64,000 nt of DNA from positions 1,859 to 65,858 of the IMG/VR virus record IMGVR_UViG_3300002220_000769; one strand, written 5' to 3'. Below, piece by piece: positions 1 to 48,825 of this stretch; the stretch's first letter is position 1; each line of letters starts with the position of its first letter. Origin of the DNA: a virus. Lineage: Duplodnaviria > Caudoviricetes. A program made the position numbers and the translations under genes. A model generated the notes under the pieces. That model ran no database searches. It was not told the origin of the DNA and saw only the letters and a program-made list of their open reading frames with translations.

Positions 1-5
1 TCTGC

Positions 6-34
6 TTGACATGCAATAGCAAGTCAGGTAGAAT
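6..34 (+). promoter_or_regulatory. sigma70-like promoter for tRNA(CAT)
   Basis: TTGACA(6-11), 17 bp, TAGAAT(29-34); near-duplicate at 157-185. Confidence 0.75.
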
Positions 35-63
35 TCAGTTTCAGTAGTTAGCAGCAAATAGAT

Positions 64-140
64 GCGAGGGTAACTCAATCGGTTAGAGTACAGGTCTCAT
101 AAACCTGAAGTTGTGGGTTCAAGTCCCACCCCTCGCACCA
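64..140 (+). tRNA. tRNA with CAT anticodon (elongator Met or Ile2)
   Basis: GCGAGGG/CCCTCGC acceptor stem, CAGGT-CTCATAA-ACCTG anticodon arm, GTGGG-TTCAAGT-CCCAC T arm, encoded CCA; lacks initiator features. Confidence 0.93.
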
Positions 141-156
141 AGAATAAAATTTCTGC

Positions 157-185
157 TTGACAAGCAATAACTGGTCAGGTAGAAT
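157..185 (+). promoter_or_regulatory. sigma70-like promoter, followed by late-type ATAAATA at 196-202
   Basis: TTGACA(157-162), 17 bp, TAGAAT(180-185). Confidence 0.7.
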
Positions 186-204
186 ACACAAACTGATAAA
201 TAAC

Positions 205-520
205 TCAGTTCTTTAAAAATCAGAAAATAAGTCAAAGATTCAATATTTTTGACTAACAAAAAAGTGAAATCACTTGGTTGGAGAAATTATTGCGCTCTAC
301 AAGACTCAATAGCGAGTCCTCTGTATCGTCATCAAAAATCAAGTGCTTCACAAGTCAAAGGTGAGGCCCGGCTCTACCGAGACTTAATACTCCGGGATTA
401 TCCCACTCACATCGGATGGATCGGAAAAAACTCAAGAGAGTTCATCGTGGGGAGTCTGACAGAAAACCGTGACAGTCAGACAATAACAATTGCAAATGAT
501 AGCGATGTCATTTGTTGAAG
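205..520 (+). ncRNA. structured RNA leader preceding a tRNA 3' half (possible intron 3' portion)
   Basis: many hairpins (231-253, 262-275, 303-318, 454-480; 493-514 with GCGA tetraloop); ends in G immediately before the tRNA half. Confidence 0.4.
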
Positions 521-560
521 AATAATCGGTAGGTTGTAGGTTCAATCCCTACACAGGCTA
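521..560 (+). tRNA. 3' half of a permuted tRNA (Ile2-like body)
   Basis: (A)ATAATCGGT AGGTT GTAGG-TTCAATC-CCTAC ACAGGCT A = anticodon 3' strand, T arm, acceptor 3' strand; no CCA. Confidence 0.8.
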
Positions 561-566
561 TGAGTA

Positions 567-615
567 GTGAAGAACACAGAGTCTAAAGAACACTGTGTTT
601 TACGCGGCAGTTGCT
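567..615 (-). mobile_element. 49-bp miniature IS200/IS605 derivative
   Basis: on minus strand TTTAT|AGCAACTGCCGCGTAAAACACAGTGTTCTTTAGACTCTGTGTTCTTCAC. Confidence 0.8.
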
Positions 616-624
616 ATAAAATCT

Positions 625-660
625 GGCCTGTTAGCTCAATTGGTTAGAGCAACCGACTCA
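625..660 (+). tRNA. 5' half of the same permuted tRNA
   Basis: GGCCTGT TA GCTC AATTGGTTA GAGC A ACCGA CTCA; acceptor pairs with 553-559, ACCGA pairs with TCGGT 526-530. Confidence 0.8.
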
Positions 661-698
661 CACCGAGGGTCGAGTTAAATCGTCCTTCAAACCAACAA

Positions 699-796
699 AG
701 GAAGTTTACAGCAAACTAAAGAATGGTTCGAGTCCATCACGGAAAGATGCAAATCTATCCTTGACTATTCCCATAAGGTAATGGGAAAACTTCCTG
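699..796 (+). ncRNA. long-loop hairpin RNA motif copy 1 (skipping-rope-like)
   Basis: AGGAAGTTTACAGCAA...AAACTTCCTG terminal stem. Confidence 0.5.
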
Positions 797-811
797 AACA
801 GTTTCAAATCA

Positions 812-900
812 GGTGCATTGGTCGAGTGGCTGAAGACAAGAGTTTGCTAAACTCTCCTACGCTTTAAGGCGTAGCGTAGGTTCGAATCCTACATGCACCG
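812..900 (+). tRNA. tRNA-Ser(GCT)
   Basis: GGTGCAT/ATGCACC, AGAGT-TTGCTAA-ACTCT, long variable arm, G discriminator. Confidence 0.93.
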
Positions 901-962
901 CAGAAAATAGTAGTTGACATACAAGTGTTCTGAATGTAGAATACTTGAAAGTTTCAAAAAGT

Positions 963-1047
963 GCCTTCGTGGTGGAACAGGTATACACAGCGCACTCAAA
1001 ATGCGCCGCCGAAAGGCATGTCGGTTCGAATCCGACCGAAGGCACCA
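963..1047 (+). tRNA. tRNA-Leu(CAA)
   Basis: GCCTTCG/CGAAGGC, GCGCA-CTCAAAA-TGCGC, variable arm, ACCA. Confidence 0.95.
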
Positions 1048-1311
1048 ACAGTTCATAAGATTTGTGCAACATACTATCAATTGAGAGAGCCTTACCTAAA
1101 ATCCTAAGTTAGCACCGACAGTAAAGATCTAGTGATCTAGGGTGCATAAGCCAAGAAATCTATGGTAGATTCAGGTGAGGTGTGCAAGTTTGAATCTTGC
1201 TGTTGCACAAAAACATTGGTGAATACGCAGGCTGATGCGCTAGTTCCAGTTGTCGCTTGTCCACACGGAATGTCGGAGATCAGCACCGACCACCATTTTA
1301 ATACAAGATTT

Positions 1312-1468
1312 AGGAAAAGTTCAGCAAAAAATTTACTCATGACTTAGCCGATTCTCAAGTGAAGGTGTTGCTTGGGTGACTCAGATAATTCTGATATTGT
1401 TGATAGAACATCAACTGGATGTGATAAGACCATGCGTCACATTGAGAAAGAGTGGAACCCTTTTCCTG
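1312..1468 (+). ncRNA. long-loop hairpin RNA motif copy 2
   Basis: AGGAAAAGTTCAGCAA...CTTTTCCTG. Confidence 0.45.
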
Positions 1469-1559
1469 TTACATCTTGTCTGTTTTAGTTGTTGACAAGT
1501 AGTTAGAGTGGTTGTAAGATAGAAGCATAAACAGTAAAGATAGTTCTTTAACAAGTTCC

Positions 1560-1636
1560 CTGCTCGTAGCTCAATCGGATAGAGCACCGGCCTTCTAAGC
1601 CGGTGGTTGCAGGTTCAACTCCTGCCGAGCAGGCCA
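1560..1636 (+). tRNA. tRNA-Arg(TCT)
   Basis: CTGCTCG/CGAGCAG, CCGGC-CTTCTAA-GCCGG, GCCA end. Confidence 0.95.
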
Positions 1637-1691
1637 TATTCGGAAATAGTTTGAGACTAAAACTATTTCAAAAAATGAAAATAAAAGTTTT

Positions 1692-1771
1692 AGGATAGGT
1701 TCAGCAAACACATTATACAATGGCGTCAGTATTCAGTCTGACATTAATCAAAACTGGAAAAAACTATCCTG
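1692..1771 (+). ncRNA. long-loop hairpin RNA motif copy 3
   Basis: AGGATAGGTTCAGCAA...AACTATCCTG. Confidence 0.5.
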
Positions 1772-1789
1772 TTAAAGTTGTTTTTAATC

Positions 1790-1873
1790 TCGGCGTCGGT
1801 TAGTGGTCTATACCACCTGTTTTGGGAACAGGAGCAAAAAATTGCGTCATGGGGTAGAATCCTACCGTTTTGA
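1790..1873 (+). pseudogene. degenerate tRNA-Pro(TGG)-like sequence
   Basis: intact CCTGT-TTTGGGA-ACAGG anticodon arm; T arm and acceptor stem poorly paired. Confidence 0.5.
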
Positions 1874-1956
1874 CTAAGTGTATAAACAGTTTAACGTATT
1901 TATTAGCAAATATACTCTTATATTAACGTTTTTTACAAAAAAAGATAAATAAAAGT

Positions 1957-2523
1957 ATGAAACTAAGTGAATACGCAAAATTAAATGGGGTTCATTATCA
2001 AACTGCCTACAGATGGTTTGTTGCTGGCCTGATTCCTTCGGCAAGACAACTCCCAAATGGAACTATACTCGTAGATAAGGTCGACGTCAATAAGCCAACC
2101 GAAAAAGTTGTAACGTATGCTCGTGTTAGTAACGCATCTAGAAGAAAAGAACTTGAATACCAAGTTGCCCGTCTTCATGACTTTTGTGAGGCAAAGGGAC
2201 TAACAGTATCTGCATCGTATAAAGAAATTGCTTCTGGAATGAATGATTCCAGAAAACAACTATGGCAAATGATAGATTCTTGCCCAACGATAATTGTTAT
2301 CGAAAACAAAGACAGATTGACTAGATTTGGGTTTAAATACCTTTCTCACTTGCTTGACAAGCAAGGGACAAAAATAATAGTAATAAATGAATCCGAAACT
2401 GACGAACAAGATTTGATTCGAGATTTGGTGTCTATTATAACATCATTTTGCTGTAGATTGTATGGACTCCGCAGAGGACATAAGAAATCAAAACAGATTA
2501 CACAAGAAATAACTTCAGAGTAA
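1957..2523 (+). CDS. tnpA: IS607 transposase (HTH plus serine recombinase)
   Basis: N-terminal MerR-like HTH; YARVS catalytic motif; EIASG; IENKDRLTRFGF. Confidence 0.95.
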   Translation: MKLSEYAKLNGVHYQTAYRWFVAGLIPSARQLPNGTILVDKVDVNKPTEKVVTYARVSNASRRKELEYQVARLHDFCEAKGLTVSASYKEIASGMNDSRKQLWQMIDSCPTIIVIENKDRLTRFGFKYLSHLLDKQGTKIIVINESETDEQDLIRDLVSIITSFCCRLYGLRRGHKKSKQITQEITSE

Positions 2524-2524
2524 A

Positions 2525-3754
2525 ATGATAAAATCGACTGCTTTTTCTACTAAATTTGCAAATCAAGACAAACGAACTCGTCTTGATGAATTTTTGCATG
2601 ATTATAGAAATGCAGTTGAGTTTTATGTAGATTATTTGTGGGCAAATTTAAACAAGTCATTTGAAATACCAAAGTTTATTTCTACAAAAACCATATTCCC
2701 ATCAAATTCCGATTTATCACAGCGGGCATTAAAATGCGCTTCCACTCAGGCATGCGGAATGGTTCGTGCTGCAACAGAAAAAAGACGCAGGCAGTTGTTT
2801 GTTCTAAAAAAACTAATGCGAGAAGGCGCAAATGTCCGCCAATTGCAACGGAAAATCGATACTACCCCACTGGTCAAACCTTCTGTTCCAAAGCAACTGC
2901 CTGCTGAATTGAATTCTGTGTGTGCTGTTTTTCATACCTCGCAAAATTCCTTTGATAACTGGTTCGTTTTGAGTTCTCTTGGCAAAAAATATGGGAAAAT
3001 TTTGATTCCCGTCAAACAAACCAGGCATTCACGTAAATTGGAAAAATCTGGAACAGAAATGACTTCATTTTTGGTTTCAAGAGAGAGTATAAATTGCCGG
3101 TATGAAATTAAAAAACCAGAAAAACGGATTACTGGACGGGTGTTAGGTGCAGATCAGGGTGTGACTACTTGCCTTTCTTTAAGCGATAGTCAAGTTACAA
3201 GCAAGTGTCCTCATGGACACGACTTGCATAGTATTAGCAGCAAACTTTCCAGATGCAAAAAAGGAAGCAAGGGTTTCCGTAGGGCACAAGCGCATCGAAC
3301 CAATTACATTAACTGGTCTATAAACCAGTTAAATTTAACAGACGTAAAAGAAGTAAAATTAGAAAAGTTGTTTCAAATGCGGAAAGGACAACGAACGAGT
3401 AGATTTCTTTCTCATTTTAGTTATAAACAAATCCACGACAAATTGTCAGACAGATGCGAGTCGTCTGGCATAATCTTCACTGAACAAAGTAATGTTTACA
3501 GAAGTCAGAGATGTTCGGATTGTGGATTTGTTCACAAAGCCAACCGGAAAGGCAAAGAGTTTATTTGCCGTGAATGCGGTGTAGTGCATGACGCGGATAT
3601 AAATTCGGCCCTGAACCATGAAGCAGAACTAGTGGAGTTGCCGTTTGGTTTTCGTCATTTAAAGTTGAATAAAACTGGATTCTTTTGGAATACTCAGGGC
3701 GTATTCGATTTAAATGGACAGGAGATTACAGTCCCTGTCGGTTCAAAGCAATAG
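2525..3754 (+). CDS. tnpB: TnpB RNA-guided endonuclease
   Basis: RuvC motifs LGADQG, VKLEKL, DADINSALN; zinc finger CSDCG..CRECG. Confidence 0.9.
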   Translation: MIKSTAFSTKFANQDKRTRLDEFLHDYRNAVEFYVDYLWANLNKSFEIPKFISTKTIFPSNSDLSQRALKCASTQACGMVRAATEKRRRQLFVLKKLMREGANVRQLQRKIDTTPLVKPSVPKQLPAELNSVCAVFHTSQNSFDNWFVLSSLGKKYGKILIPVKQTRHSRKLEKSGTEMTSFLVSRESINCRYEIKKPEKRITGRVLGADQGVTTCLSLSDSQVTSKCPHGHDLHSISSKLSRCKKGSKGFRRAQAHRTNYINWSINQLNLTDVKEVKLEKLFQMRKGQRTSRFLSHFSYKQIHDKLSDRCESSGIIFTEQSNVYRSQRCSDCGFVHKANRKGKEFICRECGVVHDADINSALNHEAELVELPFGFRHLKLNKTGFFWNTQGVFDLNGQEITVPVGSKQ

Positions 3755-3798
3755 TATATTTGTATATATTATTCGTAACTGTCCAGCACCAAAATTAA

Positions 3799-3873
3799 TC
3801 CGAGATGGGCGCGGGTGTGCCAACAGAGACTGTCAATCTGTTCATCAGGAAGGTTCGATCCCTTCGCTCGGAG
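3799..3873 (+). pseudogene. atypical tRNA-Asp(GTC)-like gene
   Basis: TCCGAG/CTCGGA acceptor, GAAGG-TTCGATC-CCTTC T arm, ACAGA(GA)CTGTCAATCTGT arm with 2 extra nt; no CCA. Confidence 0.55.
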
Positions 3874-3946
3874 TCTATTAACCGTGAATGGTTAGTGAGT
3901 TTTAAAATGTTTTCCGCAAATTTTCTTCACAAAAAAAGTAAGGATT

Positions 3947-4198
3947 GTGCTTCACAGCATTATCACTTTGTGCCCCATCATCCTTAACGGACTGATCATG
4001 TTTAGCACAATTGTTTCCTACGCTGCCTTTGTATTGACTTCTATCTTTATGCTGTTTTTCTTCTATGATGCTACTCGTGATTTGACAGAACAAGAAAAAC
4101 TTCTGATTAAACTTGGTGCAAAGATTACTATTCGTTGGAGTAACTTTTTTGTTGCCCTTGCAATTTGGTTTTCTAGTGGTGTATACTTGTGGGGATGA
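3947..4198 (+). CDS. small membrane protein
   Basis: two hydrophobic segments; true start may be downstream. Confidence 0.55.
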   Translation: MLHSIITLCPIILNGLIMFSTIVSYAAFVLTSIFMLFFFYDATRDLTEQEKLLIKLGAKITIRWSNFFVALAIWFSSGVYLWG

Positions 4199-4201
4199 TG
4201 G

Positions 4202-5119
4202 TTAACAACCAATAGTTTGTTGTAAGTTGCTTTCAGTGTTCAGAACAGAATCTATCCACTCTTTTTTAGAATGGTTGAAATACTCCCTATAACTAATCCT
4301 ATGTATAGGAATTCCGTGTGATTCAAGTATGGTGTTGTCTCTGACAGCATCTGTTTTAACTGTTTGCATGTGCTGTTTCCCATCAAGTTCTATCCCGATG
4401 TGTTGAAGAGGGAAATAGAAATCAATATAGAAGTTCTTGACATATTTGCCATTTTCATCCGTTATTCGGACAGTATAGTTGAATTCGTATTTCACTGACG
4501 GATAGTTTTGCTCTATGTACGTGATGAAAGATTGTTCAAGATACGAAGGATTTTTTCTATTTCTGTATTGATTGCCGAGATGTCTTCCTTCTGAAAATGC
4601 TTTTTTGATAGAATCCGATATTTTCTTTCCAACTTGTTTCCTTGCTTCTTCTATACAGACTTCATCGTCACATACGGTTCTTTTTTTCCAAGTGGTATTA
4701 GGGATTGTGGTTCCGCATATTTTACAGGCACAGGTTTTTATAGTTCTCTTTCCAGAATCTATTTCTTCTTGGATGATTTGATTCACTCTGTCACGAATTT
4801 TCTGTTTTGTTTCTTCCGAATGAGGCTTTTTGTTGGCATTGGAGCGATAAGTTTTCTGACAAGTTTCTGAACAAGTTTTTTCTTGTGGGTAGACAAGTTC
4901 TTTTCCACAAGTTATACATCCAGAAGAATTTTTTGCTTTCCAATTTTCATATTTTTTGGTTTCTGTAACTTTTTTTCTGGATTCTTCTGCTTTCTCGGAT
5001 TGCAAGAACTTTACTGCCGAAGATGACTTTTTGTGATAATCTTCGTTGTGGTGGTTTCTGTGTGATGCTAAAGATCTCTTGGTAGAAAATTCTCGTTGAC
5101 AAATATCGCAAGTGTACAT
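4202..5119 (-). CDS. free-standing homing-type endonuclease (C2H2 finger, NUMOD3-like, C-terminal DUF559/Vsr-like nuclease)
   Basis: CDICQREFSTKRSLASHRNHH; KPHSEETKQKI; SYLEQ..YIDFYF..IGIELDGKQH; ATAAATA upstream on minus strand (5167-5173). Confidence 0.8.
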   Translation of the reverse strand: MYTCDICQREFSTKRSLASHRNHHNEDYHKKSSSAVKFLQSEKAEESRKKVTETKKYENWKAKNSSGCITCGKELVYPQEKTCSETCQKTYRSNANKKPHSEETKQKIRDRVNQIIQEEIDSGKRTIKTCACKICGTTIPNTTWKKRTVCDDEVCIEEARKQVGKKISDSIKKAFSEGRHLGNQYRNRKNPSYLEQSFITYIEQNYPSVKYEFNYTVRITDENGKYVKNFYIDFYFPLQHIGIELDGKQHMQTVKTDAVRDNTILESHGIPIHRISYREYFNHSKKEWIDSVLNTESNLQQTIGC

Positions 5120-5698: not shown

Positions 5699-5800
5699 AG
5701 CGACATAGTTCAACATTTAGAACACTAGTAGAGAAAGCCAGGAAACTGCGTAGCAAGTATCGAATGAGGTTTGTAGGTGAGAATCCTACTGTCGCCACCA
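5699..5800 (+). ncRNA. tRNA-like RNA with expanded anticodon domain
   Basis: AGCGACA/TGTCGCC acceptor, GTTC/GAAC D stem, GTAGG-TGAGAAT-CCTAC T arm, ACCA end; no canonical anticodon arm. Confidence 0.6.
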
Positions 5801-6158: not shown

Positions 6159-6812
6159 ATGATTAAATCATTGTTCAATCTTCCAAATAAAGTTACTGTT
6201 GCTCTTAGTGGTGGAGTGGACAGTGTAGCGATCACGGATTTTTTGAGTAAACATCGTGACGTAGAATGTGCCTTCTTTCACCATGGCACAGAAAATAGTG
6301 AACGAGCACTTGAGTTTGTTACCAAATTCTGCAGCAACAGAAATATTAAACTTCTAACAAAACACATTCATACCGACAAAAGCAAGGACCAAAGCAAGGA
6401 AGAATATTGGCGCGTAGAGCGTTACAAATTCCTTGAAAGCATCCCATCTATTGTTATCACAGCGCATAACTTAGATGATTGTGTTGAAACTTATTTGTTT
6501 GGTGCAATCCACGGAACACCAAAGACGATCCCATCAGTTCGTAACAATATTGTTCGTCCATTTCTTACTACAAAAAAGTCTGAGTTTATCAGTTGGTGCA
6601 CAAGAAAAGAGATTGCATGGTGTGAAGACACAAGCAACATGGACACCGAGTATATGAGAAATTATATTCGACATAATATTGTTCCTCATGCCCTGCATGT
6701 GAACCCAGGACTGCACAAAGTAGTAAAAAAGATTGTAGAAAACAAACAACCACAGTATCAGGCAGAATACGGGGATCTACTTGGCAAATTGTTGTTGACA
6801 GAATCGTCGTGA
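6159..6812 (+). CDS. tilS: tRNA(Ile)-lysidine synthetase-like PP-loop ATPase
   Basis: VALSGGVDS PP-loop; RxxRY; TAHNLDDCVETYL; RPFL; EDTSN..RNYIRH. Confidence 0.88.
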   Translation: MIKSLFNLPNKVTVALSGGVDSVAITDFLSKHRDVECAFFHHGTENSERALEFVTKFCSNRNIKLLTKHIHTDKSKDQSKEEYWRVERYKFLESIPSIVITAHNLDDCVETYLFGAIHGTPKTIPSVRNNIVRPFLTTKKSEFISWCTRKEIAWCEDTSNMDTEYMRNYIRHNIVPHALHVNPGLHKVVKKIVENKQPQYQAEYGDLLGKLLLTESS

Positions 6813-14429: not shown

Positions 14430-14921
14430 TCACGTTGACCTCATTTTTTGTATAATCTTCTTCGGTTCCAGTGGACCAGACATTCTTTCTCCACCATCAA
14501 AGTAGCGAATTTCTACAGGAAGTGAATCCCACCCTAATTCTGCTGCAGCCATAATTCTGTGATTCCCTTCATTCACCCATGCAGAACCATCCCACGCGAC
14601 CATCACAAATGGTGCATATTCTTTTCCATTTACTAATGGCAATTTTCCAGTATCTTGCATTATCTTTTTTATTGCTGCCAAATCTGCATGACGAACGTTT
14701 TCTTGTTCACCCCGCATTCCTTTTAGTCTTTTTAAGCTACTGACGGGAACTTTTGGCAGACCGCCCACAAAATTCCCGGTCCATTTGCCCATATACGGAA
14801 CTCCAAATTCATTTTTTCCTTTTTTAATGGCATAGGAAACAGCATCTTCCAACCATTCTTCATTTGGAATATCACTTGACAGTGTCACCGAAGATTCAAC
14901 TACAATTTCTTTAATTTTCAT
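14430..14921 (-). CDS. ParB/Srx-like domain protein
   Basis: PFVMV..VNEGNHRIMAAAELGWDSLPV; leader MKIKEIVVES. Confidence 0.7.
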   Translation of the reverse strand: MKIKEIVVESSVTLSSDIPNEEWLEDAVSYAIKKGKNEFGVPYMGKWTGNFVGGLPKVPVSSLKRLKGMRGEQENVRHADLAAIKKIMQDTGKLPLVNGKEYAPFVMVAWDGSAWVNEGNHRIMAAAELGWDSLPVEIRYFDGGERMSGPLEPKKIIQKMRST

Positions 14922-15856
14922 TTTTTCACCACTGTTGGCATGCTTCCAACTGATTTACCCCAATCTTCTACAAATTGTTGAGGAAGTTCTGTTGAACCGT
15001 AATGAACTATTATTGAACTGTTATCTGGAAGAATTTCTAAAATATTAATTATTTTGTTTGCACCACGAAATGTCACTGGTTGCTCTGTTCGTAATGTATG
15101 ACTAAATTTACCACTATCTTTGTATGCAGATTCACGGTAGTATCGGGTCAACTTATCAACCCAATGCTGCAAATTCTGTTCTGACTCTGATGTAGTGAGA
15201 ATCTTTTCTGGTTTGTTATCAACATGTTTAAATAGTTCGTCTTTTAAGTCTTTTGTTCCACCCCATGATGATAGTCTCCCTCTTCCTGCGACTGTATATG
15301 CAATATATCGATCAAGCAATGCAATGCAAGTATTTTCAAGCAGTGAATCTGGCATAGGAACTTTTGGTGAATTTTCTGTCGATCTTTCATGAAAAGAAGT
15401 TTTGAATGCATCAAAAAACTTATTTCGTATTTTCTGATCATCATACAATCCATGTGCGTATATATGTACAGCCTCCGCATATATCCCACCAAACAATTCA
15501 CGAACAGCAGATTGATATGCATTTTTTAGATTCCACATTATTGAATCTTCGTCTGCGAATGAACTTGATTCTGCTATCTGAGCGACAACTATTAAACTGT
15601 TTCCATCAAATTTTCTGGTTGCATTGCGAGAAGAACTCTTTGCAGTCAATAAGTTGCTTGTCCAATATGAACCTCCGATACTTGCTCTTGAAAAACTGTC
15701 AATGTTAGCATCAGGGTCATCTGCCCACACTTTTTCTTTAGAAGAAGGCAACATACCATTCTTCAATATTGAGCGAAGAAATTTTGTGCTGGTCCCATGA
15801 TACATTATTATCGGTTTTCGGAACTTTGCTTCTTGAATTATTTCATTTACTTTCAT
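14918..15856 (-). CDS. ADP-ribosyltransferase-fold (KptA-like) protein
   Basis: MYHGTSTKFLRSILKNGML; YWTS; leader MKVNEIIQEA. Confidence 0.6.
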   Translation of the reverse strand: MKVNEIIQEAKFRKPIIMYHGTSTKFLRSILKNGMLPSSKEKVWADDPDANIDSFSRASIGGSYWTSNLLTAKSSSRNATRKFDGNSLIVVAQIAESSSFADEDSIMWNLKNAYQSAVRELFGGIYAEAVHIYAHGLYDDQKIRNKFFDAFKTSFHERSTENSPKVPMPDSLLENTCIALLDRYIAYTVAGRGRLSSWGGTKDLKDELFKHVDNKPEKILTTSESEQNLQHWVDKLTRYYRESAYKDSGKFSHTLRTEQPVTFRGANKIINILEILPDNSSIIVHYGSTELPQQFVEDWGKSVGSMPTVVKK

Positions 15857-15882: not shown

Positions 15883-15930
15883 GTAACTGCCGCGTAAAAC
15901 ACAGTGTTTTTTAGGCGATGCGACCTTCAC
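15883..15930 (+). mobile_element. 48-bp miniature IS200/IS605 derivative
   Basis: TTTAT|GTAACTGCCGCGTAAAACACAGTG...CTTCAC. Confidence 0.75.
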
Positions 15931-20440: not shown

Positions 20441-21754
20441 CTGACTGACGCGTAAAGCACAGTGTTCTTTAGACGCTGTGATATAAGCGGCATTCCAAAA
20501 AAATGTAGATAAATAACTACATGAAACATAAAGCATTTAAATTCCTTCTCTTACCAAATACCCAACAAGAACAGCAATTGATTCAACTTGCTGGTATTTC
20601 TCGTTGGATATGGAATTATATGCTACAAAAGAACAAAGAGCAATACGAAGCAGAAAAAAAGTTTGTTTTTAAGTTCGCAATGAACAACTTGCTTCCTGAA
20701 CTGAAAAAAGAACACCCTTGGTTAAGTCAAATGCCAAGCCAAGCATTACAACAAAAATGCTCTGATTTGGATGCAGCAATACAACGGGTTTACAAACAAG
20801 GATTTGGTTTTCCTAAATTTAAATCGAAGCACGTAGAGCACCACAACACTTTCCGTATCCCCAATCAAAGCAAGTGCATTCGCCCGACAAAAGACAGGGT
20901 TAAATTGCCAAAATTGGGTTGGGTTAAGTGGGTTAAACATAGAAATATAGAAGGGTTGTTGAAATCAGTAACTATTAAAAAAGAAAACAATCGGTGGTGG
21001 TGCGTGTGTCTTTGCGAAATTGAGGAAGTTTCCCCTTCTACTGCATTGATTGACTCCGATATTATCGGTTTGGATTTGGGTATAAAAGATTTTGCTGTTT
21101 GTAGTGATGGTGAAGTTATACCAAGCAACCATTTCTACAGAAAATCAGAACGTAAATTAAAAAGAACACAAAAACAACTGAGTAAAAAGCAAAAAGGAAG
21201 TAACAACTACAACAAAAAGAAGAAAGAATTAAATGCGCAGCACTACCGAGTAAAATGCCAGCGACAAAACTTCACTCATCAAGCAAGTAGTTCGATAGCC
21301 AAGAACTACAAACTGGTTTGTATTGAAGACTTAAATGTCGCTGGTATGAAGCGAAATAGGTCACTTGCAAAATCTATAAGTGATCAAGGATGGCGTCAAT
21401 TCGTTAACCAATTAGAATACAAGATGGATTGGGTGGTTAAAATTGGTCGTTTTGCTCCGAGTTCAAAGACGTGTAGTTGCTGTGGAAATATACAAGATAT
21501 GCCTCTTGAAGAAAGAACGTATTCATGTAGTAATTGCGGGTTAGAAATGAATCGTGATTTAAACGCAGCAATGAATGTTCGCAATTGGGGCATAGAAAAA
21601 ATAATAGGGCAAGGAAGTGTCCAAATATACGCCTGTGGAGATACCTCTGACGGGGATTCTGAGCAATCAGAGTCTAGTTATGTATCGTTGAATCAGGAAA
21701 ATATCCCCTCACTGGAGGGGAAGCGCAGTGTTCTTTAGACGCTGCGTTCTTCAC
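20441..21754 (+). mobile_element. TnpB-only IS200/IS605 (IS1341-type) element, 1314 bp
   Basis: TTTAT target 5' of left end; CACAG..CTGTG left hairpin; GAAG-CGCAG..CTGCG-TTCTTCAC right end; no target duplication. Confidence 0.9.
20521..21738 (+). CDS. tnpB: TnpB RNA-guided endonuclease
   Basis: HTH N-terminus; GLDLGIK, IEDLNV, CSCCG/CSNCG, RDLNAAMN. Confidence 0.95.
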   Translation: MKHKAFKFLLLPNTQQEQQLIQLAGISRWIWNYMLQKNKEQYEAEKKFVFKFAMNNLLPELKKEHPWLSQMPSQALQQKCSDLDAAIQRVYKQGFGFPKFKSKHVEHHNTFRIPNQSKCIRPTKDRVKLPKLGWVKWVKHRNIEGLLKSVTIKKENNRWWCVCLCEIEEVSPSTALIDSDIIGLDLGIKDFAVCSDGEVIPSNHFYRKSERKLKRTQKQLSKKQKGSNNYNKKKKELNAQHYRVKCQRQNFTHQASSSIAKNYKLVCIEDLNVAGMKRNRSLAKSISDQGWRQFVNQLEYKMDWVVKIGRFAPSSKTCSCCGNIQDMPLEERTYSCSNCGLEMNRDLNAAMNVRNWGIEKIIGQGSVQIYACGDTSDGDSEQSESSYVSLNQENIPSLEGKRSVL

Positions 21755-21956: not shown

Positions 21957-22004
21957 CTGACTGACGCGTAAAACACAGTGTTCTTTAGACGCTGCGTTCT
22001 TCAC
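21957..22004 (+). mobile_element. 48-bp miniature IS200/IS605 derivative
   Basis: TTTAT|CTGACTGACGCGTAAAACACAGTGTTCTTTAGACGCTGCGTTCTTCAC. Confidence 0.88.
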
Positions 22005-22005
22005 T

Positions 22006-23541: not shown

Positions 23542-23588
23542 GTGAAGAACGCAGCGTCTAAAGAACACTGTGTTTTACTCGGCAATGG
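23542..23588 (-). mobile_element. 47-bp miniature IS200/IS605 derivative
   Basis: GTGAAGAACGCAGCGTCTAAAGAACACTGTGTTTTACTCGGCAATGG|ATAAT. Confidence 0.8.
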
Positions 23589-24222: not shown

Positions 24223-24270
24223 ACAATTGCCGCGTAAAGCACAGTGTTCTTTTGGCGATATTATCCTCAC
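24223..24270 (+). mobile_element. 48-bp diverged miniature IS derivative
   Basis: TTTAT|ACAATTGCCGCGTAAAGCACAGTGTTC...CTCAC. Confidence 0.7.
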
Positions 24271-45076: not shown

Positions 45077-45669
45077 AAATAACAGAAATAACTAGACCTC
45101 GCTCAATTGCAGATGCAGATCGTATTCTGAAGCAACATGGATACAAAAGACTTGGAGTTGGAAGTTTTGGCGTAGCATATCAAAAACGACCAGATCAAGT
45201 GTTGAAGCTTTTTTCCAGCGCAGACACTGCGTATCTAAAGTTTATACACGTTTCAAAAACTGCAAATAATCCACATTTCCCAAAAATATTTGGCAATCCT
45301 ATCAGGATAAACGAAACTTATTATGGAATCAAAACAGAAATGCTGGAGACAATAGATTTGACAGTTGCATACAATGTTTCGTCTTCCATCCGAAAATATA
45401 TCTTCAACATGCAGCGTGGTAAACAACCAACTCCAGAAACAGATCTATACAAAGAAATTGCCCCGTATGTTAAAAACTATGAGGAATTTGACCGTGCGTG
45501 CAAAATATTGGTAGAGTTGATCAACTCCGACAAAGATATCACACTTGATGTTGCTACAAGAAATATCATGTTTAGAAACGGAACTGTTGTATTCTCTGAT
45601 CCAGTGGCGTCACAAACTGCAATGTCGGCAGATGAACTTCACTTGCCAGAATCAAAACAAGAGCAGTGA
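45073..45669 (+). CDS. protein kinase-like (paralog of 40498)
   Basis: LGVGSFGVAY; DVATRNIMFR; FSDP. Confidence 0.8.
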   Translation: MKITEITRPRSIADADRILKQHGYKRLGVGSFGVAYQKRPDQVLKLFSSADTAYLKFIHVSKTANNPHFPKIFGNPIRINETYYGIKTEMLETIDLTVAYNVSSSIRKYIFNMQRGKQPTPETDLYKEIAPYVKNYEEFDRACKILVELINSDKDITLDVATRNIMFRNGTVVFSDPVASQTAMSADELHLPESKQEQ

Positions 45670-45714
45670 AGAACGCAGCGTCTAAAGAACACTGTGTTTT
45701 ACGCGGCAGTTGAT
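45666..45714 (-). mobile_element. 49-bp miniature IS200/IS605 derivative
   Basis: GTGAAGAACGCAGCGTCTAAAGAACACTGTGTTTTACGCGGCAGTTGAT|ATAAA. Confidence 0.88.
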
Positions 45715-45746
45715 ATAAATACAATCAACATTCCGGAAAATTAAAA

Positions 45747-48775: not shown

Positions 48776-48777
48776 AA

Positions 48778-48825
48778 GTGAAGAACGCAGCGTCTAAATG
48801 ACACTGTGTTTTACGCGTCAGTCAG
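48778..48825 (-). mobile_element. 48-bp miniature IS200/IS605 derivative
   Basis: GTGAAGAACGCAGCGTCTAAATGACACTGTGTTTTACGCGTCAGTCAG|ATAAA; terminator follows. Confidence 0.88.

Follow-up and report, generated by a model that had tools for sequence, protein, structure and literature searches.

The 64,000-nucleotide stretch of DNA analysed here (the window; bases 1859-65858 of the 65.9-kb IMG/VR virus record IMGVR_UViG_3300002220_000769, Caudoviricetes) carries near its start a tRNA gene whose 3' half precedes its 5' half. This circularly permuted gene is real and conserved, descends from a gene of the tRNA-Ile2(CAU) type and holds no ribozyme. The explanation that we favour, tentatively and at somewhat below an even chance, is that it specifies a conserved tRNA-shaped RNA with a topology like that of YrlA. 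Positions are those of the window, and the permuted gene, its flanking elements, the transcription unit around it and the gene for TilS all lie on the + strand. The record is rated only 18% complete, so the sequence is a fragment of a very large phage; the source is a large freshwater phage, and the GC content of the window is 38.5%.

The two halves form a complete tRNA-Ile2 body

A first-pass annotation of the sequence had placed the 3' half (521/523-560) ahead of the 5' half (625-660) and proposed that, joined at the anticodon loop, they make a complete cloverleaf similar to tRNA-Ile2. Both the coordinates and the cloverleaf are borne out. The 3' half (521-560) consists of anticodon-loop bases, the 3' strand of the anticodon stem (526-530), the variable loop, the T arm (536-552), the 3' strand of the acceptor stem (553-559) and the discriminator A560. 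The 5' half supplies the 5' strand of the acceptor stem (625-631), the D arm (634-650), the 5' strand of the anticodon stem (652-656) and the loop bases C657, U658, C659 and A660, and it is followed by three further invariant bases, CAC, which take the feature to position 663.

Given the halves in their usual order, ARAGORN called a tRNA(CAU) when 659 was joined to 522 or 660 to 523, and the anticodon AAU when 658 was joined to 521. In the joined cloverleaf all stems pair (acceptor 7, including G1.U72; D 4; anticodon 5; T 5), the universal bases are intact and the anticodon loop reads CUCAUAA, all seven of its bases surviving across the two halves. The Ile2-type anticodon arm, CGACUCAUAAUCG, recurs in tRNAs of T4-like phages and in G005, a related contig that has it in an intact tRNA(CAU). 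No CCA is encoded by the permuted gene; nearly all of the intact island tRNA genes that we read encode one, the exception being tRNA-Ser(GCU).

We scanned for further permuted tRNAs with ARAGORN in intron mode on doubled 260-nt windows. In the 64 kb of the window the locus was the sole candidate, there was none in the related jumbo-phage loci, and about 1.45 Mb of other loci returned only single-offset chimeras of neighbouring tRNAs, in the tRNA clusters of Pseudomonas and Aeromonas phages. Pattern scans for the permuted order found none in viral contigs and only an ordinary tRNA pair in metagenome contigs, and scans with other exact patterns were also without matches.

The invariant CUCACAC at 657-663 is itself seven bases long, and ARAGORN interprets these bases as a whole Val(CAC) loop, with A35, C36 and A73 as the discriminator. 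These are the bases used by the valyl-tRNA synthetase of Escherichia coli.

The swapped order is kept in diverged relatives

Five assemblies from three lineages have the halves in the swapped order: the window together with L149, then L160, and finally L162 together with L178. L149 is an independent ENA assembly (143.6 kb, ERZ27315067 k141_1713062) that we reached via an upstream-encoded 107-aa protein, and its sequence agrees at 100% identity between a point 822 bases ahead of the window and window position 4914. The other contigs were reached via a 52-aa open reading frame (ORF) of the island and members of the TilS cluster; L160 is an ENA contig assembled with SPAdes, whereas L162 and its identical twin L178 come from two runs in Logan. 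A fourth lineage, L161 (ENA), was reached in the same way and lacks the block from about 525 to 685. At that place it has a 6-bp hairpin, GUGAAG-AAUAC-CUUCAC, the arms of which correspond to window positions 515-520 and 686-691. Most of the relatives found via TilS or the upstream 107-aa gene have no tRNAs nearby.

Compared with L160 and L162, the halves show no change (0/41 and 0/36, together 0/77) at a divergence where third codon positions of tilS differ by 8.3%, and the chance of finding no change in 77 bases at this divergence is about 0.001. Five intact tRNAs compared in the same way had changed at 2/402 bases. Conservation starts at G520 and stops at C663, position 664 being C or U. Immediately outside, 13/45 of the bases before the 3' half (29%) and 14/36 of those after the 5' half (39%) have changed, and the leader as a whole differs by 6-8% between lineages. 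Judged from these alignments, the halves are under clear constraint. The flanks of the open end (476-520 and 664-698) change at three to four times the third-codon-position rate, with the stems of two hairpins kept.

The fold and its likeness to YrlA

In each of the three lineages, the lowest-energy structure is a permuted cloverleaf. Its junction, which is closed by the 5-bp anticodon stem, contains the T arm, the D arm and the 7-pair acceptor helix, and this helix is extended by three pairs with the linker (561-624), in which the discriminator A560 pairs with U624, G562 with C623 and A563 with U622, before ending in a linker cap. The first-pass annotation had described the linker as a short spacer plus a miniature insertion sequence, and the relatives agree with that description. 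In L160 and L162 it is 14 nt long, with UGA and AUCU conserved and the middle differing in their alignment, whereas the window carries an extra 55-nt repeat (567-621) that is absent from both; the repeat is therefore a later insertion in the window lineage. It sits inside the closing loop and has spared the closing pairs. With its paired discriminator, its insertion in the loop and no encoded CCA, the acceptor end looks closed, unlike the free end of a tRNA.

The 55-nt repeat belongs to a family (GTGAAGAACGCAGCGTCTAAAGAACACTGTGTTTTACGCGGCAG..ATAAA) with about 10 copies in the contig, in both orientations. Besides 567-621 we located copies at 15885-15914, 20444-20480, 21726-21754, 21960-22005, 23542-23584, 24228-24252, 45665-45719 and 48777-48822, and another in L004 (1123-1167). 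Copies stand at both ends of a TnpB element near 20441-21754 and others lie before genes or terminators; the repeat could be either a small mobile element or a cassette with a regulatory role.

At the other end of the folded body both junction strands run outwards to a hairpin. The 5' junction strand (516-525) holds the invariant G520 and AAUAA (521-525), with 515-519 varying between lineages and 516-519 hypervariable. The hairpin on this side (492-515), six bases upstream of the invariant block, has a 4-nt loop and is kept in all four lineages, where the loops read GCGA, GAAA, GAAU and GUGC and one stem pair is U.G, U-A or C-G. On the 3' side a second hairpin (665-688) begins one base after the invariant block; its stem, GAGGG/CCYUC, is kept and its loop is replaced between lineages.

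Since the tRNA-like module of YrlA, a Y RNA of bacteria and phages, has this topology, the locus is most likely a tRNA look-alike. In Chen et al. (2014; PMC4201824), the T and D arms of YrlA are described as flanking a closed acceptor-like stem, and the YrlA of Mycobacterium smegmatis, which has a 7-bp acceptor stem, as being cleaved by RNase P and tailed with CCA in vivo. The permuted gene shares with YrlA the order T arm, closed acceptor-like stem, D arm, the exit of both RNA ends at the position of the anticodon stem, the bases of the tRNA tertiary contacts and, with the M. smegmatis RNA, a 7-bp acceptor stem. The compact L160 copy matches the tRNA-like core of the Rfam YrlA model (RF02553, model positions 23-88 of 114) with 32.7 bits and an E-value of 1.3e-5; Rfam gave no YrlA match on the insertion-bearing copy of the window. 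The island also holds other tRNA look-alikes, namely three RNAs built of a stem plus CAGCAA and an RNA at 5699-5800, and a DUF2828 protein is encoded next to the tRNA island of the relative G005.

If the locus does encode a look-alike, it would be transcribed from the promoter P2 (157-185) on a transcript probably shared with the structured leader, a CAGCAA small RNA and tRNA-Ser. The two halves, with the linker between them, would then fold into a tRNA-shaped body with the acceptor closed by the linker and the anticodon end left open, where the invariant strands (G)AAUAA and CUCACAC would each lead into a conserved hairpin. Such an RNA would probably act as the partner or decoy of a tRNA-binding protein, possibly one resembling Ro60. 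By analogy with the M. smegmatis YrlA, opening of the acceptor loop may fall to RNase P and the CCA-adding enzyme.

Several observations weigh against a YrlA-like RNA. The 32.7 bits lie far under the gathering score of 69 and the match is confined to the region in which every permuted tRNA should align; tandem-tRNA junctions also gave 21 bits. The Ro60-binding ends of the model (1-22 and 89-114) do not align, no Ro60-binding stem was found, and inspection of 192-520 and 661-698 by eye gave no GNCGAA motif. Unlike YrlA, the locus has no rsr gene nearby, its open end is flanked by hairpins in place of a long terminal helix, and its body is a near-perfect tRNA-Ile2 with every loop base retained. 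There is no gene for a TROVE or DUF2828 protein in the 66-kb record, and one 10-kb step beyond the window revealed neither a ligase nor a Ro60-like gene. The closing stem of 7 bp followed by three bases and CNGCAA, which frames the small RNAs of the island, does not wrap 521-663. The diverged lineages that are independent number only two, and no base pair covaries between them. All seven bases of the CAU loop are retained, more than a look-alike alone would call for, and the phage encodes TilS and uses AUA for 35% of its isoleucine codons, with this as the only Ile2-like anticodon arm in the available sequence.

Is the locus a permuted tRNA-Ile2 joined by proteins?

These last points raise the question of whether the locus is a true permuted tRNA-Ile2 gene with halves joined by proteins, the main rival reading, which we consider less likely. 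Protein endonucleases would cut both junction strands beside the anticodon stem, an RNA ligase (the host RtcB or another) would join A660 to U523, the linker would be removed by RNase P together with 3' trimming and the addition of CCA, and the phage TilS would convert C34 to lysidine, so that the product would read AUA. The flawless cloverleaf with the loop CUCAUAA and a conservation equal to that of working tRNAs are what such a gene should show. TilS is encoded 5.5 kb away (6159-6812) as a lysidine synthase of the PP-loop domain only (PF01171, E 3.9e-35; TIGR02432, 129 bits against a cut-off of 93.6), and AUA reaches 25.8 per 1000 codons. In G005 an intact Ile2-like tRNA(CAU) stands in front of tRNA-Ser(GCU), at the place equivalent to that of the permuted gene, and the variable flanks and linker would suit enzymes that measure from the tRNA body.

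Against such a pathway, the locus has no bulge-helix-bulge motif and no conserved leader-trailer helix; the helix between 515-520 and 686-691 has 6/6 pairs in the window, 5/6 in L162 and 1/6 in L160, and the duplex energy between the flanks did not beat that of dinucleotide shuffles. No ligase family turned up either, as searches of the 66-kb record (18% complete) and five related contigs (49-86% complete) for RtcB, PF09414 and PF09511 (Rnl1/Rnl2-type ligases) were negative, with the absence of Rnl1 (PF09511) uninformative because the control genomes were also silent. The missing CCA and the paired discriminator speak against a free acceptor end, and the intact tRNA(CAU) at 64-140 could serve TilS instead.

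Circularly permuted tRNA genes were reportedly described by Soma and colleagues in 2007 from Cyanidioschyzon merolae, some green algae and Thermofilum pendens; we know of such genes only from a few algae and one archaeon, and of no maturation pathway for them in bacteria or their viruses. The locus resembles them in its upstream 3' half, its short linker (14 nt in the relatives), the split in the anticodon loop and the lack of CCA. They rely on a bulge-helix-bulge, a splicing endonuclease, a ligase and a circular RNA intermediate, whereas at this locus we found no such motif or enzyme gene, and the host is bacterial.

One further gene came up as a possible RNA-processing enzyme. The ORF at 14918-15856 (- strand) encodes a 312-aa protein with a YHGT motif at its start, like the NAD-binding lobe of Tpt1/KptA. 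We rejected it as an RNA 2'-phosphotransferase, since its likeness to the NAD lobe is limited to the HGT motif and it has no catalytic N lobe; the product is probably another protein of the ADP-ribosyltransferase fold.

Is the locus an inert scar?

Alternatively, a mobile element could have disrupted the anticodon of a tRNA-Ile2 gene, and a tandem duplication of this gene could then have lost its outer halves, the inner halves persisting without function. We think this improbable. Its attraction lies in the setting: the island is hypervariable and rich in mobile elements, L161 does without the block, and a degenerate tRNA-like remnant lies at 1789-1873.

A natural case of such a break is found in Aeromonas phage P19 (OM339718; L010, 1509-2100), in which a free-standing HNH endonuclease gene (504 nt, 167 aa) interrupts an unannotated Ile2-type tRNA between C34 and A35. 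No intron structure is visible there, the stop codon of the HNH gene overlaps the anticodon loop, and the T loop of the tRNA is abnormal. Its sister phages AS-zj and CC2 have the intact tRNA and Aszh-1 has an extra 3' tRNA fragment; given the intact gene in the sister phages, the P19 split looks like a recent disruption. The P19 tRNA is homologous to ours (Ile2 type, 91% identical over the 5' half) and broken at C34/A35, but its halves stand in the normal order around the endonuclease gene. A mobile endonuclease gene thus hits this type of tRNA, and the breakpoints in the window are compatible with the same site, which makes P19 a plausible model for the origin of the break. We tried the flanks as a decayed endonuclease gene and rejected this, finding no similarity to the P19 HNH protein, the transposases of the window or PHROGs.

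At a neutral divergence of about 8%, the 0/77 changes have the low chance given above, conservation coincides with the limits of the tRNA-derived block, beyond which the bases are hypervariable, and the insertion into the linker spared the closing pairs. This pattern argues against a mere scar.

The flanks are not the halves of a group I intron

In the first-pass annotation the locus was proposed to be a natural permuted intron-exon system, its flanks being two parts of a group I intron that back-splice the halves. Searches of Rfam, the relatives and shuffled sequences all go against this, and we hold it to be very improbable. With the group I covariance model (RF00028) there was no match at E-values up to 10 in 1-5000, nor in 186-520 and 655-811, each of which was run on its own to let truncated matches score. 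No group II intron or known ribozyme matched in 1-5000 or in either flank in Rfam, the Pseudomonas phage loci likewise gave none, and by eye there is no hammerhead or HDV-like core beside the halves.

The four pairings on which the proposal was built can all be drawn in the window, yet they are neither above chance nor conserved. The helix likened to P1 (654-658 with 668-672) exists in the window only, L160 and L162 reading GGG--AAG there. For the P2-like pairing and its alternative, 0.49-0.97 of dinucleotide shuffles fold at least as well. The hairpin taken for P9 (492-515) is a conserved leader element that L161 also has without the halves, and the 5' strand of the supposed P7 (378-385 with 452-458) lies inside a separate pseudoknot module (354-398).

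Features that would suit an intron include G520, which precedes the 3' half and is invariant in three lineages, a weak point on its own; U658, which can pair with G668 in the window; and the strong structure of the region as a whole (z -6). Group I introns in the anticodon loops of bacterial tRNAs, for example that of the Azoarcus tRNA-Ile(CAU), and engineered permuted systems are indeed comparable in tRNA type, loop position and the G before the 3' exon. They differ in having a catalytic core and a conserved P1, both missing here, and the 5' half lacks the terminal U that a CAU anticodon would require; group I rules would give AAU. A catalytic core would be conserved, and it speaks against an intron that nothing else in the region changes as fast as the flanks, which differ by 29% and 39% where third codon positions differ by 8.3%. 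The gap between the 5' half and the next RNA gene is only 38 bases, and the leader is built of modules that exist without tRNA halves. The flanks are not intron halves.

Least credible of all is an assembly artefact at the 55-nt repeat, which the multi-copy nature of the linker repeat might suggest, as the repeat-free lineages L160 and L162 have the same order, the independent L149 is identical, and five assemblies from different pipelines agree.

The transcription unit and its leader

The first 6 kb of the window form a tRNA island in which ARAGORN found Met(CAU), Ser(GCU), Leu(CAA), Arg(UCU), Gly, Ser and Leu, with Cys and Lys directly upstream of the window. Consensus sigma-70-type promoters occur at 6-34, 157-185, 914-942 and 1492-1520. 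The second of these, P2 (TTGACA, 17 nt, TAGAAT; 11/12 consensus positions), is kept in L160, L162 and L161, and near-identical promoters stand in front of neighbouring tRNAs. From this arrangement, P2 is the predicted head of a unit that spans the permuted tRNA and runs through tRNA-Ser(GCU), its last gene (812-901).

The complete stem-plus-CAGCAA RNA of this unit (699-796) begins 38 bases past the 5' half. It consists of the stem AGGAAGU/ACUUCCU followed by UUA and then CAGCAA, encloses a cargo that includes a T-arm look-alike (723-737), and has 2/98 changes with respect to the relatives. Two more copies of this family (D11) lie in the island at 1312-1468 and 1692-1771. We considered a complete tRNA formed from the 5' half and the T-arm look-alike and rejected it, as the acceptor strands do not pair.

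Within the leader, the pseudoknot module at 354-398, which we call motif A, forms the hairpin GGUGAG[GCCCGG]CUC-U-ACC, and its loop can pair with CCGGG at 392-396 in a candidate pseudoknot. It is 89% identical to a leader element of the tRNA operon of D3-like Pseudomonas phages, its stem covaries (GAG/CUC, GGG/CCC, GGA/UCC), and it is present in L161, which has no tRNA halves. This 45-nt element is thus common to an AT-rich jumbo phage and to GC-rich D3-like Pseudomonas phages and prophages, and it is not in Rfam. It is always in the leaders of tRNA operons (L009, 1501-1545; L011-L043; L152-L157), in Pseudomonas between a ninG-like gene and the lysis genes.

A second module is shared between the window (1218-1300) and the D3-like loci (for example L011 and L014) and has the form GUGAAUnCGCAGGCUGAUGCGC ... 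CGGAGAUCAGCACCGnCCAC around a variable insert. In L020, L037 and L038 the same slot holds an apparent minimal hammerhead (CUGAUGAG-stem-CGAAAC), for which Rfam made no call.

Other elements of the tRNA island

The look-alike at 5699-5800 has acceptor, D and T arms and an ACCA end, with a remodelled anticodon domain. The tRNA-Pro-like element at 1789-1873 is degenerate or a remnant and is followed by terminator-like hairpins. In L161, positions 355-427 hold the body of the island tRNA-Lys(UUU) with the anticodon arm swapped, the loop reading CGAUUAA (G33, anticodon AUU). An IS607-type element at 1900-3970, with a serine recombinase (1957-2523) and TnpB (2525-3754), is found in the window and L149 and is missing from L160 and L162. 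At the corresponding place the strains L150, L130 and L044 lack the entire tRNA island.

Implications

tRNA-shaped Y RNAs are known and their function is poorly understood. Here a near-perfect tRNA-Ile2 body in swapped order occurs together with a phage-encoded lysidine enzyme for this tRNA type, and three lineages with the block and one without it provide natural controls. If the YrlA-like reading is correct, the locus may illustrate the way in which phages convert tRNA genes into look-alikes. If instead the halves are joined by proteins, this would be the first maturation pathway for a permuted tRNA in the bacterial world, and its product would read the abundant AUA codons. Either outcome is informative, and bacteria may possess a cut-and-join route to tRNA not yet known.

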